This document shows, piece by piece, positions 692 through 4,835 of a stretch of 10,384 nucleotides of DNA. The translations under genes were made by a program, and so were the position numbers. The notes beneath the pieces are model-generated. The model was not told the DNA's origin. It saw only the letters and a list, made by a program, of their open reading frames with translations, and made no database searches. The stretch comes from Bdellovibrionales bacterium (GTDB lineage: Bacteria; Bdellovibrionota; Bdellovibrionia; Bdellovibrionales; UBA1609): contig JBFWVI010000079.1 of NCBI GenBank assembly GCA_050246815.1, positions 1 through 10,384 on the forward strand, given 5' to 3'. Numbering within the stretch: the first letter of the stretch is position 1; every line of letters begins with the position of its first letter.

Positions 692-716
692 GCGCAAACG
701 GAAGTCTTCCGCGCGC
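692..716 (-). other. small imperfect GC-rich hairpin directly after the pgeF stop
   Basis: The - strand reads GCGC-G-CGGAA-GAC-TTCCG-TTT-GCGC. There is no U-tract after the outer stem, so it is not a convincing intrinsic terminator. Confidence 0.3.
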
Positions 717-1402
717 TAAAGCCTTGCAACAAAGCTGTATTGACGCGCATCCGGGCTCTTGCCACGGCGAAAGGAGTGAAACATGGGCGAAGAAAAGGTG
801 CTCTCGCGTGAAACCTCAAGGGGGATCATGGCGCCCAAGACCGAGCGCAATTGCGCCGCCGCGATCTGGCCCAAGTTGACCCGCCGCTTCGAGGCCTCAG
901 GATGGGGCAAAACTGGCAAAGGGCCATTGGGCACGACTTCCTTGTAGCGCTGGATCAGTTGATTGGCCACATCCAGCCCCACTTCAAAATCGGGAGCCTG
1001 AATGTGCGGCCCAACCAAAACGCAATCAAGTTGGCATTTGTTTTCTTGCACAAAGCGGGCGCACCTGATCAAGAGGTTATTTTCAACGCCGCGCCAGCCG
1101 GCATGAGCCGCGACGATCAATTTGTCTGTTCCAAACAACACCGGCAGGCAGTCGGCGGTTTGAATCACAAGACCCAGGCGAGTTTGTTTGGTCCAATGGG
1201 CATCGGCCGTTTGAGTTTCGGGTTGCGATTCCACCAGGGCATCGCCGTGCACTTGTTTTAAAAAACGAAATTCATATTGTGGATAGATGTCGCGTAAAAT
1301 TTCACGTGTGCAGGCTGCAGTTCCGAAAAAATAATGAAAATTGTCGCGAATAAGCTCTGAGCCATAAACTTGGTTCTTAAACAAAACCCTTTGACCGATC
1401 AC
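716..1402 (-). CDS. pgeF: peptidoglycan editing factor PgeF / YfiH (polyphenol-oxidase-like, purine nucleoside phosphorylase family)
   Basis: Motifs KQVHG, QTADCLPV, HAGWRG, GPxI..FEVG and FHSFRR, in the usual position downstream of rluD. I prefer the GTG at 1402 to the track's 1408 because it forms a GTGA overlap with the rluD stop and has GGAG 5 nt upstream. Confidence 0.93.
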   Translation of the reverse strand: MIGQRVLFKNQVYGSELIRDNFHYFFGTAACTREILRDIYPQYEFRFLKQVHGDALVESQPETQTADAHWTKQTRLGLVIQTADCLPVLFGTDKLIVAAHAGWRGVENNLLIRCARFVQENKCQLDCVLVGPHIQAPDFEVGLDVANQLIQRYKEVVPNGPLPVLPHPEASKRRVNLGQIAAAQLRSVLGAMIPLEVSRESTFSSPMFHSFRRGKSPDARQYSFVARL

Positions 1403-2385
1403 AACCACTCCAACAAGCTCAGCAGGTCCTTTAGATCATCAGGCCAAGGCGCCTTGAAAATCAAGGACTGCTGGGTGCGCGGGTGAACAAATCCCAGTTC
1501 AGCCGCGTGCAAGCCGATACGTCCCATGGGTTGGATGACCTGGCGCAGGGTTTCACTTTTGACTTTGGTCATTTGCGCTTTGGCGCCGTAAAGCCAATCG
1601 CCGATTAGCGGATGCCCCAGCTCGCTTAAGTGGATGCGAATTTGATGGGTGCGACCGGTTTCCAGGCGCACGCGCAGCAGACTCAACCCGAGTAAATGAC
1701 TTTTAATTAATGCGTAATGGGTTAAAGCGCGCTTGCCGCTGGGCTTTTGCCCGGGCCGCAGCTTTTCAGAGGCAAAACGCTTACGATCCGTTGGGTGGCG
1801 CCGTAAATAGGACTCGATCGTGCCTTGCGGTTTGACCGGCGTGCCATGTGCGATCGCCCAGTAAACACGGTGAATGGTGCGGGCCTTGAACTGTGCGGCC
1901 AAATGGGTTTGTGCTTGATCCGTTTTAGCCACCACCAAAACACCACTAGTGTCTTTGTCTAGGCGATGCACGATACCCGGGCGCTGCTCACCAAAGCCCA
2001 TCGCCAAGTCAGGTGTGTGATGAATCAAGGCGTTGACCAGGGTGTCTTGGGCATGCCCGGCGGCGGGGTGCACCACCAGTCCGGCAGGTTTGTTCACCAC
2101 GATCACCTCGGCGTCTTCATGCAAAATGTCTAATTTTAAATCGAGCGGCTTAAGGTCGGAGCTTTCAGGTTGTGGCAACTGCACGCGATAGGTTTCGCCC
2201 GCTTTGGTCAGCTGTGAGGCTTTGACCGTGCCACCGTTTTTGGTGATGCCGTGGGTTTCGATCAATTTGGCTGCGCGGGTACGAGAATTAATTTGCGGAT
2301 GCGTGGCTAACGCTTTGTCCAAGCGCAGCCCACTCAGTTCATCGGGCACGGTCCAATCAAAGCCAAGTGGTGATTTAGGACCCAA
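1399..2385 (-). CDS. rluD: RluA-family 23S rRNA pseudouridine synthase, RluD type
   Basis: N-terminal S4-like domain (RLDKALA..SRTRAAKLI), VNKPAGLVVHP, catalytic HRLDKDTSG, LETGRTHQIR, HPLIGDWLY and LHAAELGFVHP. The TTG start overlaps the upstream gene by 11 nt, so the exact start is uncertain. Confidence 0.95.
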   Translation of the reverse strand: MGPKSPLGFDWTVPDELSGLRLDKALATHPQINSRTRAAKLIETHGITKNGGTVKASQLTKAGETYRVQLPQPESSDLKPLDLKLDILHEDAEVIVVNKPAGLVVHPAAGHAQDTLVNALIHHTPDLAMGFGEQRPGIVHRLDKDTSGVLVVAKTDQAQTHLAAQFKARTIHRVYWAIAHGTPVKPQGTIESYLRRHPTDRKRFASEKLRPGQKPSGKRALTHYALIKSHLLGLSLLRVRLETGRTHQIRIHLSELGHPLIGDWLYGAKAQMTKVKSETLRQVIQPMGRIGLHAAELGFVHPRTQQSLIFKAPWPDDLKDLLSLLEWL

Positions 2386-3097
2386 CGTGTTTACGGAAGC
2401 TCTTCATGTAGGCATCCGCCAAACGGTCAGGAACACCCAGAGTGCGCGCGATTTGCAGCACAAAACCGCGAACAAAAACCGGGGCTGGCAATGCATCGTG
2501 GGCATTGTTTTCGATCGCTGCCAAATAACTTTTGCTGATGCGAGTGGCGTCGCTCAACTGCTCGAAGTTGACCTTTTTATACTGACGAACCTTTTGTACA
2601 AACGACCCGTCGCACTCTTCAACTGTGGCGAATTCGCTTTCTAAAGCTTTATTGATTTCGTAAATTCCAAAGCGGGTGCGGGCAAAGCCCTCGGGAAGTT
2701 CGTCGCGCAGGTTGGTCGATCGTGCGGGCTTCAGCGCGGCGCCCTCTTCACCCACGATGGTGGGTTTTGCATTGGTCGTCGGTGCGGGGCCCTGGCTGTA
2801 CGAGCTGGCCGGTGTCTTCTTGAGCAATTCAATAAAAGAAGGGTGGCCATTTCGAGCCAACTTCAAATCGTATTCGGTGCGTTTGGCCTGGTTGCTGAGC
2901 GTGGTGAAGGCCTCGTCGATCATTTTCAAAAGCTCGCGCGCCTCTTCGGTGGTGAACATGGTGTAAAGCGCGGGGCTTTCGGGTGAATAGGTTTCTTTGG
3001 CGCGATTGTAAGCGGCATGAATATCGCGGCTCGAAGCGGACGGATCGACTTCTAAAATCTCGTAGTAGTTGGATTCATCCCAGCGGTTAAGGCCCAT
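2375..3097 (-). CDS. J-domain-like (no HPD) plus C-terminal RodZ-type/XRE helix-turn-helix protein, soluble
   Basis: aa ~10-78 follow the DnaJ J-domain pattern (NYYEILEV..AS..DI..AY......Y[SPE]...I.EAF.TLS...KR.EYD). aa ~95-135 form a P/T/A/S-rich linker. aa ~163-222 follow the RodZ N-terminal HTH pattern (G..VQKVR....V.FEQLSDATRISKSYLAAIE.....LPAPVFVRGFV..IAR.LGV). No transmembrane segment is visible. Confidence 0.88.
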   Translation of the reverse strand: MGLNRWDESNYYEILEVDPSASSRDIHAAYNRAKETYSPESPALYTMFTTEEARELLKMIDEAFTTLSNQAKRTEYDLKLARNGHPSFIELLKKTPASSYSQGPAPTTNAKPTIVGEEGAALKPARSTNLRDELPEGFARTRFGIYEINKALESEFATVEECDGSFVQKVRQYKKVNFEQLSDATRISKSYLAAIENNAHDALPAPVFVRGFVLQIARTLGVPDRLADAYMKSFRKHVGS

Positions 3098-3101
3098 GAA
3101 A

Positions 3102-4094
3102 CTACAGTACCATAGCCCGTTTCTGGAGAGGAGAACTCAAACGTCTGGTGATGGCCATCATTTGAGCGTAGACCCGGCTATGGGGATACTCAGTCAGCAG
3201 GTGACGTCGCTTTCGAAGCGCCTGCCACACCGCATTGTCATATTCGATATGTCCTAAGTAGTTGAACGGCACGCCAAAGTATTTGGTGCAAACGCCTTGA
3301 ATCGACGGTCCTAGGTCGGCGTCTTTAAGGCTTCGCACTTGGTTTAAAATAATCTCACAGTTCAAATCACTCATCAATTTTTGTAGGCGCATGCCATTTT
3401 CCACATCTTTGGCGGCTATGGTTTTTAGCAGGTCCGACGGAGATCGCAAACCGAGTTTTGTTCGATTGCCCATCAACTCACCCATCAAATGACCCAGTTG
3501 CAACTGGTCTTCATAGCGACGGATCTTGCGATAAAAAGCGGCCTTTAAAAAGCGATAGGCGTTTTCGATGCTCGAGGGTTCTGGCGTGAATACCACCACC
3601 TTGTGCGAAGCCATCAAAAAGAAGTCCAAGGTGTTGTGGTGCGAACCCGCACTCAGATCCAGAACGATGAACTTTGACTTTAATTTATAAAGCGAAGACA
3701 TCAGGCGTGAGCGCTGAAAATCGTTGATATCGGCCATGTCGACTAAATCACTGCTTCCAGCGATCAGCTTCAAGTTGGGGTAGGCCGTTTGCACGGCGGT
3801 GTCGGCCAGGGTCAGCGAGGTGTCGGTTAAAAACTCATTGATGCCGATTTTGGGAAGGCCTTCACCCAAAGTGGTGTGCAGGTTGGCGCCACCCAAATCC
3901 AAATCCAATAAATAAGTTTCATGGCCCAGATTGGCCAAGAAAATGGCAATACTCGAACTGACAAAGGATTTGCCGATGCCACCTTTGCCGCCACCCACCG
4001 CGATGATTGTGGCCTCTGGAACAACATTCCCGCGCACGAACTGATATTTATTCGAGGGTGAATGTGACGCTGCCACTAACTTTGACCTTTCCAA
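3102..4094 (-). CDS. MinD/FlhG(FleN)-family P-loop ATPase
   Basis: Deviant Walker A GGKGGIGKS with the signature Lys, DLDLGGANLH, Walker B/switch II VLDLSAG, TPEPSSIENAY, ILNQV and YLGHIEYD. TTG start with SD-like AAGGTG overlapping the tsaB stop codon. Confidence 0.92.
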   Translation of the reverse strand: MERSKLVAASHSPSNKYQFVRGNVVPEATIIAVGGGKGGIGKSFVSSSIAIFLANLGHETYLLDLDLGGANLHTTLGEGLPKIGINEFLTDTSLTLADTAVQTAYPNLKLIAGSSDLVDMADINDFQRSRLMSSLYKLKSKFIVLDLSAGSHHNTLDFFLMASHKVVVFTPEPSSIENAYRFLKAAFYRKIRRYEDQLQLGHLMGELMGNRTKLGLRSPSDLLKTIAAKDVENGMRLQKLMSDLNCEIILNQVRSLKDADLGPSIQGVCTKYFGVPFNYLGHIEYDNAVWQALRKRRHLLTEYPHSRVYAQMMAITRRLSSPLQKRAMVL

Positions 4095-4106
4095 GCTGCA
4101 TACACC

Positions 4107-4835
4107 TTATCGTTGTCTTGTTGGCACGGGCTTTAAAAGACCCTGCCGCAACTTCTCTTCGGCTTCAGAGCCGCGAATATAAAGGGGTTTTACATTTTTC
4201 CAGGATTGCGGCTGAAGTTTTCGATCACCTTGGACAAAGATCGTGAACAGATTGCGCGCTTCGGGGAAACAGTTTTCTGACAATTGCACGCGGGCTTTTA
4301 GCTCGGCAGGCCATTGATCCAGAAATGGCACCCAACCGTCACCCACCACAACCAAAGGTCCAGTTGTCGTCAGGCGTTTTGGCAGGTCGGCCACTTGCAG
4401 GGCTTCGGGCGACCAGATTTCGCGCGCCAGACCTTGGTCTAGCTGATAGGCGGCGGCATAGACGATGTCGCGAAAGGCCTTCATCACCACCAAAACAGGG
4501 ATGCGACTTTGGCTTTGCGATTGGGCCCAAAGGTGAAGCGAATTGGTGGACCAGACCGGGCGCTGCAACGAGAAGCCCAAGGCTCGCGCCAAACTCACGC
4601 CCACACGAATGCCGGTGAAACTGCCCGGGCCTACTCCCACCAAAACACCGTCCAACTGGTGGAGCTCTTTTTGTGTATCGCGCAACAGATTTTGCAAAGT
4701 GACGGTCACCAGTTCGCTGTGGGACTTTTCGCGCTGCCAATGCTGCTCACCAAGCAATCGAATGCGTTGCTCGGTGAGTTCGGCCAAAGCCAGGGAACCC
4801 TGTGGGGATGAGGTGTCTAGGGCTAATAAAAGCAT
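4107..4835 (-). CDS. tsaB: tRNA threonylcarbamoyladenosine biosynthesis protein TsaB (YeaZ)
   Basis: LLALDTS, HSELV, VGVGPGSFTGIRVG and C-terminal PLYIR motifs; 242 aa. Confidence 0.93.
   Translation of the reverse strand: MLLLALDTSSPQGSLALAELTEQRIRLLGEQHWQREKSHSELVTVTLQNLLRDTQKELHQLDGVLVGVGPGSFTGIRVGVSLARALGFSLQRPVWSTNSLHLWAQSQSQSRIPVLVVMKAFRDIVYAAAYQLDQGLAREIWSPEALQVADLPKRLTTTGPLVVVGDGWVPFLDQWPAELKARVQLSENCFPEARNLFTIFVQGDRKLQPQSWKNVKPLYIRGSEAEEKLRQGLLKPVPTRQR

Follow-up and report, generated by a model that had tools for sequence, protein, structure and literature searches.

The stretch of DNA considered here (the window) is 10,384 nucleotides long and forms contig C79 of a 3.4-Mb genome, 99% complete, whose nearest named relatives are Bdellovibrionales. 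It contains two adjacent genes, encoding a MinD/FlhG-like ATPase and a smaller protein, its putative partner, in which a J-like domain is joined to a RodZ-type helix-turn-helix (HTH). The pair is real and conserved, is apparently undescribed, and belongs to the ParA/MinD kind of ATPase-plus-partner systems. Its features are listed below; residue counts here and throughout refer to 81-row ortholog alignments of the two proteins, from which two loci cut by contig ends (L022, L082) were left out.

3102-4094, minus strand: ATPase gene (P0001), TTG start, 330 amino acids
3966-3995, minus strand: deviant Walker A motif with signature Lys37 and Lys42 (K37 in 81/81, K42 in 80/81)
3897-3905, minus strand: Asp64 and Asp66, both invariant (81/81)
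3543-3545, minus strand: Lys184, mapped to K177 in the partner-binding face of FlhG
3375-3539, minus strand: family-specific helical insert of ~50 residues (residues ~186-240), directly after helix alpha6
3279-3281, minus strand: Tyr272, equivalent of FlhG F215
3204-3215, minus strand: basic patch R294-K-R-R297 (K/R in 80, 62, 71 and 58 of 81)
2375-3097, minus strand: partner gene (P0002), ATG start, 240 amino acids
2852-3076, minus strand: J-like domain (residues ~8-82), J fold, no HPD
2954-2989, minus strand: HPD-replacing loop, six-residue insert with [SN]41-x-A43-x-Y45, candidate ATPase-docking motif
2384-2650, minus strand: RodZ-type HTH (HTH_25), C-terminal, no membrane anchor
2462-2476, minus strand: Phe208 and Phe212, matching the MreB-contact aromatics of RodZ

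Four nucleotides (3098-3101) separate the reading frame of the ATPase from that of its partner. Upstream, tsaB ends at 4107 and leaves a gap of 12 nucleotides; downstream, rluD begins with a TTG at 2385 and overlaps the partner stop by 11 nucleotides. These spacings, first given in the first-pass annotation, were all reproduced, the outer two being dependent on the TTG starts. Both TTG codons are preceded by purine-rich stretches and the N-termini are the same in the nearest homologue (L001), and an alternative rluD start (GTG at 2349) would turn the overlap into a gap.

The distribution of the pair in the phylum was determined in an even set of 201 genomes, with cut-offs of E<=1e-30 for the ATPase (single-protein query) and E<=1e-22 for the partner (profile). 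The ATPase was found in 157 genomes, the partner in 168 and both in 153. Gene order was read in 96 partner loci, comprising L001 and 95 loci of the sample that were picked from the best-scoring hits and spread over families (L023, from the same genome as L053, was not counted). Because the ATPase lies directly upstream on the same strand in 82 of these loci, the pairing is far beyond chance. Outside the phylum, one sixty-fourth of a metagenome collection was scanned and 80 loci were kept, mostly ordinary FlhG/MinD; the split pair was present in four (L105, which is Anaeromyxobacter-like by source names, L106, L107 and L110), an ATPase-J-HTH fusion in L119 and an ATPase-HTH fusion in L109. Clean fusions in gene order were also found among 13 longer proteins (P0122-P0124), P0125 and P0129 being left out as they appear frameshift-joined. 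Atlas clusters with the partner come from Thermodesulfobacteriota, Myxococcota, Acidobacteriota and Aminicenantota, and the fusion clusters are commonest in Myxococcota and Acidobacteriota, with few members in either case; taxa outside the phylum were assigned from Atlas labels, source names and guanine-cytosine (GC) content. One ATPase query retrieved 4611 protein clusters at E<=1e-40, not all of them checked for a partner, and a single-protein scan of the genome collection returned one locus. The co-conservation proposed in the first-pass annotation is borne out by these counts, as is its suggestion that natural fusions of the three domains might exist, and we regard the pair with high confidence as an ancient, widespread and conserved module.

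The ATPase matches the Pfam-type domains ParA, CbiA and AAA_31 and is modelled with a MinD-like fold (predicted local distance difference test, pLDDT, 92.7). Its closest solved relatives by sequence are FleN and FlhG (E 1e-20 with the single sequence, 5e-40 with the profile), which also provide the closest folds (Z 28.3, root-mean-square deviation 2.6, 249 residues aligned); the match to the MinD family is weak (47-60 bits versus cut-offs above 200). The motif set of ParA/MinD (SIMIBI) proteins is present, including the deviant Walker A with its signature Lys, the switch I Asp and Walker B, and D146 and G150 are also invariant. Asp66 corresponds to the Asp mutated to Ala in FleN and FlhG chains of the PDB (alignment to 5j1j/8pb9 and 4rz2/4rz3). 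The protein thus resembles FlhG (YlxH) and FleN (4rz2, 4rz3, 5j1j, 7ejw, 8p53) in its fold, Walker A, catalytic Asp and EPTS-type motif, and it keeps equivalents of two residues on the partner-binding helices of FlhG, K177 and F215 (K177/R207/F215 map to K184/S264/Y272, given the 8-residue offset of 4rz2). Position 184 is K/R in 72 of the 81 proteins and Glu in nine diverged copies of family f2, and the insert starts immediately after it.

Unlike FlhG and FleN, the ATPase carries the ~50-residue insert (profile gap 166-224 against 171-178 in FleN), which is modelled as extra helices with pLDDT >95 and is missing in L034, L102 and L103. A FlhG-type aromatic membrane tail (FF/FW) after the last core helix was found in none of the 81 proteins, and in 17 of them the chain ends no more than 36 residues from W290. 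Of ten FlhG-like controls, eight show an aromatic tail by a looser pattern. The DQAxxL activator motif, defined as in a literature search listing, is absent from all 84 proteins searched, and the genome's own FlhG as called lacks it too. In the loci examined flhF never lies beside the module, and the true flhF-flhG-fliA genes of this genome sit on contig C10. A quick tree of 89 rows, with Shimodaira-Hasegawa approximate likelihood-ratio test (SH-aLRT) support only, no named MinD, PomZ or McdA rows and one short row of wrong length (L171), places the ATPase in a 60-row clade (SH-aLRT 96) separate from FlhG. In a nested 42-row clade (SH-aLRT 99) all 42 members have the partner adjacent or fused, the contig of L105 showing the J part only and L109 the HTH only. 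A fixed partner gene of another kind also sets the ATPase apart from FlhG/FleN. The four genomes with the ATPase only all belong to family f11, and in both of those inspected the ATPase is fused to GYF and falls outside the 42-row clade.

The presence of flagella was assessed through FlhA in 51 genomes. Five module-bearing genomes (G172, G001, G011, G044 and G106; 91-98% complete) gave no FlhA match and four module-less genomes have FlhA, so that flagella and the pair do not track together. As judged from its sequence, the ATPase is a FlhG/FleN paralogue and not a bona fide FlhG, because flhF-flhG-fliA are located elsewhere, the insert is present and the membrane tail is not. The first-pass annotation had allowed that it might fall inside FlhG proper; its clade, its locus, the missing tail and the independence from flagella all say otherwise. 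The same observations, and less surely the missing DQAxxL motif, make it extremely improbable that the protein is a second, redundant regulator of flagellar number, as automatic naming of many homologues as FlhG implies, even though the FlhG-like fold and the kept K177 and F215 equivalents would suit that role. It differs from MinD in lacking both the minC/minE context and a membrane tail.

Several variants of the ATPase were encountered. Family f2 holds a fast-evolving form (L041-L046, L050, L051 and L054) in which the catalytic residues are kept and G68, T155, N178, K184 (to Glu), L222 and G274 are altered in 9/9; the L054 protein has no insert (257 amino acids), and the ATPase gene is gone from five relatives of the same genus. 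Related insert-length ATPases with an N-terminal GYF_2 domain occur at L100, L101, L104 and L118, and in family f11 these GYF_2-ATPases follow a second ParA-like gene, which is degenerate, and have genes for polysaccharide export or HEAT-repeat proteins nearby. Further architectures in the ATPase clade (P0133, P0134; P0126-P0128; L112-L116) include an HPD-bearing J domain with ATPase and CheR-like domain, an ATPase with TPR, and forms of 382-394 amino acids adjoining lgt or fapA.

The partner consists of a J-like domain, a disordered linker and the RodZ-type HTH (pLDDT 87; linker residues 101-128 under 50), with domain matches to DnaJ (residues 10-77) and HTH_25 (168-223); neither its sequence nor its model shows a membrane segment. 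At E<=0.001 Foldseek found no match to the two-domain protein, and the hits it gave were to J domains and HTHs. In its J fold and core residues it resembles DnaJ, CbpA and HPD-less J-like proteins, and its database names ('CbpA') are domain-based. J domains require HPD for the stimulation of Hsp70. Here S-x-D/E stands in place of HPD, and six residues that DnaJ lacks come after it; H-P-D occurs at positions 38-40 in 0/81 proteins and anywhere in the first 95 residues in 1/81. Unlike DnaJ and CbpA, the partner therefore has a longer loop in place of HPD, with a Tyr (Tyr45) that is present in 81/81 partners beside an ATPase and whose conservation follows a P-loop ATPase.

The alignment profile of the partner matches the RodZ structures 2wus, 3fym and 4gqm, and a search of its own genome with the HTH profile returns just two proteins, the partner itself and a distinct membrane RodZ. 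(The latter, at G000:C59:13973-15037, lies downstream of a PilW-like TPR lipoprotein, as read by eye.) The partner resembles RodZ in its HTH_25 and in keeping the MreB-contact aromatics, and differs in that the HTH is C-terminal and the protein soluble, with neither membrane helix nor periplasmic domain. F208 and F212 align with Y66 and F70 of Chlamydia Ct009, and these positions are aromatic in 80/81 and 73/81 partners, respectively. Ct009 requires both residues for MreB binding, according to the available part of PMC4047632.

An XRE-like HTH could also make the partner a DNA-binding regulator and the ATPase its ATP-dependent anti-activator, as in FleN/FleQ. Consistent with this, the ATPase has FleN and FlhG as its closest relatives of solved structure; FlhG interacts with FliM and with the HTH of the transcription factor FlrA via K177, R207 and F215 on alpha6-alpha7, and the FlrA HTH raises FlhG ATPase activity (bioRxiv 10.1101/2022.04.21.489128, as far as its text was accessible). 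Moreover, the HTH scores on HTH_19, HTH_31 and HTH_3 and weakly on SinR (E 0.12-0.29), and the partner is soluble and persists alone. However, putative recognition-helix positions vary among the 81 partners (S188 in 50/81, K189 in 39/81, at least 11 residue types at position 190) and the RodZ helix motif is fixed; the best dyad in 58 ATPase upstream regions covers 8 loci and is equalled by 3/40 shuffles (a weak test); apart from RodZ, no regulator in the genome is picked up by the HTH profile; and the partner has no AAA+ or sigma-54 domain. A regulatory pair of this kind is quite unlikely in our assessment, and both the FleN/FleQ-like option and the DNA binding by the HTH that had been put forward in the first-pass annotation lose ground, given the variable recognition helix and the lack of a conserved operator.

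Natural losses of the ATPase bear on the function of each partner domain. The partner was found without an ATPase match in 15 of the 201 genomes; G156, with an insert-less remnant in place, was counted as ATPase-bearing, and G020 and G060, with the partner at a contig start, were dropped. The remaining 12 genomes belong to families f1, f2, f5, f6, f10 and f19 and are 89-100% complete, and the ATPase profile finds in them only partial FlhG/ParA-type matches and no full-length module ATPase. In eight of the 12, tsaB stands 58-180 bases before the partner, and in nine rluD follows it. Two of these partners have lost the J domain and consist of the HTH only. In the ten others Tyr45 is kept in three, as opposed to 81/81 beside an ATPase, while the J core is preserved (L15, A29, Y30 and A63 in 10/10; Y12 and Y76 in 9/10), as is the HTH (G164, R171, E196, P204 and V207 in 10/10; both aromatics in 12/12). 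Outside the phylum, Tyr45 is present in 4/4 split pairs and in 1/4 covalent ATPase-J-HTH fusions, a relaxation that is as expected for a docking motif once the domains are tethered.

Because Tyr45 decays upon loss of the ATPase and the HTH stays intact, we infer that the J loop probably contacts the ATPase, as the first-pass annotation had supposed for the J-like domain, and that the HTH has a target of its own. Several lineages have kept the partner after losing the ATPase, which suggests that the ATPase regulates the partner and that the partner is more than its activator, a direction that had been missed. In family f19 (L185, L187, L195), an ATPase-less partner or an HTH-only remnant of 103-124 amino acids remains; in L195 and L185 it lies divergent from a pilM-like pilus cluster, near a nuoN-like gene (read by eye).

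The explanation that we favour is that an FlhG-derived ATPase docks the J loop of a protein whose RodZ-type HTH binds MreB or the elongasome, so that an ATP cycle gates a soluble mimic of RodZ; we give this a probability of a little under one half. In the general ParA/MinD cycle ATP leads to a dimer and a partner stimulates hydrolysis (available text of PMC11407121). Here, ATP would drive dimerisation of the ATPase, the ATP-bound dimer would bind the J loop (S/N-x-A-x-Y) of the partner, and the partner would stimulate hydrolysis. By analogy with FlhG, the docking face would comprise helices alpha6-alpha7 plus the insert, and the alpha6-alpha7 face with K184 is the likely site. The cycle would then gate where or when the soluble RodZ-like domain acts on MreB or the elongasome; RodZ homology makes such a target for the HTH about an even call. 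The partner would be the core of the system and the ATPase its dispensable regulator. Rather than selecting the division site as a core function, the system would tune cell shape, growth of the wall or machinery that depends on MreB, and would not be essential. The stronger proposal, that an HPD loop has been re-tooled from Hsp70 to a ParA/MinD-type ATPase in the same protein that clamps MreB as a soluble RodZ mimic, is attractive and rather doubtful.

A number of observations weigh against this explanation. Binding between ATPase and partner and the stimulation of hydrolysis are predictions, and the third FlhG contact, R207, is not conserved (S264). The three ATPase-less partners that keep Tyr45 all belong to one genus, the one in which G156 retains its ATPase remnant, and the loss pattern as a whole amounts to about five or six independent lineages, kin not being independent. 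The L109 fusion (2374-3774) lacks a J-like domain, its ATPase running straight into the HTH, an arrangement in keeping with the HTH being what the ATPase contacts. No mre, rod or division genes lie beside the pair in the loci scanned, and MreB is found in 189/201 genomes, module-less ones included, so that its distribution does not discriminate. YmfM of Staphylococcus aureus, a species that we take to be without MreB, also retains the contact aromatics. In Streptococcus pneumoniae, RodZ keeps them without MreB and their mutation gave no phenotype, as stated in the accessible portion of PMC9804626.

Transposon-insertion sequencing (Tn-seq) data add to these objections. Fitness data exist for host-independent Bdellovibrio bacteriovorus 109J (PMC6561027, partly available), in which gene order after tsaB, not sequence, identifies the pair as EP01_RS11240 (ATP-binding protein) and EP01_RS11245 (hypothetical). 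Across four predation conditions their fitness values are 1.1-2.0 and 1.7-2.2, with neighbours alike, and neither identifier occurs in the other supplement files (all 8 searched), the essential-gene list included. The syntenic pair is dispensable in 109J, with no Tn-seq fitness cost; fitness screens miss changes in shape or gliding, and 109J probably carries the diverged form of the ATPase. An essential division role is disfavoured because these genes are dispensable, which weakens the division-positioning option of the first-pass annotation to that extent. In the same data (supplement file 5), EP01_RS11255, at the syntenic position of pgeF, reaches a predation fitness (W 2.7-4.6) above that of all other rows read.

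The number of mreB copies was considered separately. All 20 genomes of family f2 carry two, and most other families one. A link between two copies and decay of the ATPase was rejected: the ATPase has been lost from G111 and G184, which have a single mreB, and is kept in G086, G093 and G148, which have two.

The dispensability of the syntenic genes also bears on a ParA/PomZ-style arrangement, in which the ATPase would cover the nucleoid by means of its basic patch, with the partner as its link to a cargo, for example the division site or a machine at the pole. This is compatible with the J-loop docking step proposed above, and the missing membrane tail and conserved basic patch suit it, as ParA-type members contact DNA through a positively charged face at the C-terminus (PMC11407121, in the part available). 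B. bacteriovorus is said to be without MinC and MinD (PMC7186360), and the RodZ HTH contacts division proteins in S. pneumoniae (available part of PMC9804626). Nevertheless, FleN carries basic residues at the same place, so that the patch is partly shared and not diagnostic; the fold is FlhG-like and not ParA-like; and the ATPase has been lost in at least five lineages, with the syntenic genes dispensable in Bdellovibrio. We judge such an arrangement unlikely.

The genes around the pair, named by domain scan as TsaB, RluD and PgeF, are as follows.

4107-4835, minus strand: tsaB, upstream neighbour in the window's own order, adjacent in 29/96 loci
1399-2385, minus strand: rluD, conserved downstream neighbour, present in 93/96 partner loci
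716-1408, minus strand: pgeF, conserved downstream neighbour, identified by domain

The minus-strand order is tsf, pyrH, frr, uppS, cdsA and rseP (read by eye, no domain scan), then tsaB, ATPase, partner, rluD and pgeF. Among six scanned window reading frames there are no minC/minE, parB, flh or che genes, in agreement with the earlier remark that the usual ParA/MinD partner genes are missing from the window. tsaB was considered as a part of the module and rejected, being a neighbour at the level of gene order only. The rluD and pgeF genes are probably co-transcribed with the pair and are at most candidate parts of its mechanism. A tie to RNA modification or ribosome assembly through RluD, or to chaperones by a non-canonical action of the J-like domain on DnaK, would account for the position of rluD after the partner, which holds in ATPase-less genomes and in a myxobacterial-like contig (L107). 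We regard it as very unlikely, since HPD is absent from the J-like domain, L106 and three f19 loci are without rluD, and rluD-pgeF is a common unit by itself.

No promoter or terminator signals exceeding those of shuffles were found in the window. In family f14 (L011-L031), a CTATAAT stretch resembling a sigma-70 -10 box lies upstream of the ATPase gene in 12/17 sequences (counted by eye), which suggests that this ATPase gene may have its own housekeeping promoter. After pgeF, the window encodes a membrane-anchored protein of 163 amino acids with an FG-GAP-like stretch (175-666) that is conserved in several relatives.

Like ParA-ParB, MinD-MinE, McdA-McdB and PomZ-PomXY, the system favoured here combines an ATPase with an adjacent dedicated partner gene, here sometimes fused. 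In contrast to the partners of those systems, this one has a J-like domain and a RodZ HTH, is unrelated to them by Pfam and PDB searches, and persists without its ATPase. The first-pass annotation knew of no characterised system with this architecture, and we found no description of the pair in the literature searched, where coverage of subscription journals and bioRxiv supplements was limited; searches by approximate locus tags of Myxococcus xanthus and B. bacteriovorus HD100 gave nothing on it, and the available main text of a 2026 ParA survey does not mention DnaJ, J-domains, RodZ or Bdellovibrio. New in the present analysis are the count across the phylum, the pattern of ATPase loss in which Y45 decays selectively, the comparison with the binding face of FlhG, the observation that the pair is uncoupled from flagella, and the Tn-seq data on syntenic genes.

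The pair defines a large ATPase subfamily, mis-annotated as 'FlhG' (and its partner as 'CbpA'), with a new type of partner in Bdellovibrionota, Myxococcota and other phyla. According to the accessible part of a 2024 review (PMC11407121), one of five such ATPases has been studied in B. bacteriovorus and two of five in M. xanthus; this ATPase is therefore likely an unstudied one in two tractable models, and the loss pattern supplies targets for point mutants (partner Y45, F208 and F212; ATPase D66, K184 and the insert). If the link to MreB is true, it would connect ParA/MinD patterning to the bacterial actin cytoskeleton, which would serve as matrix or cargo in place of DNA or membrane, and would be a case of a J domain redirected to an ATPase other than Hsp70. 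Throughout predatory and delta-type bacteria, such a system may pattern growth of the wall or motility that depends on MreB.

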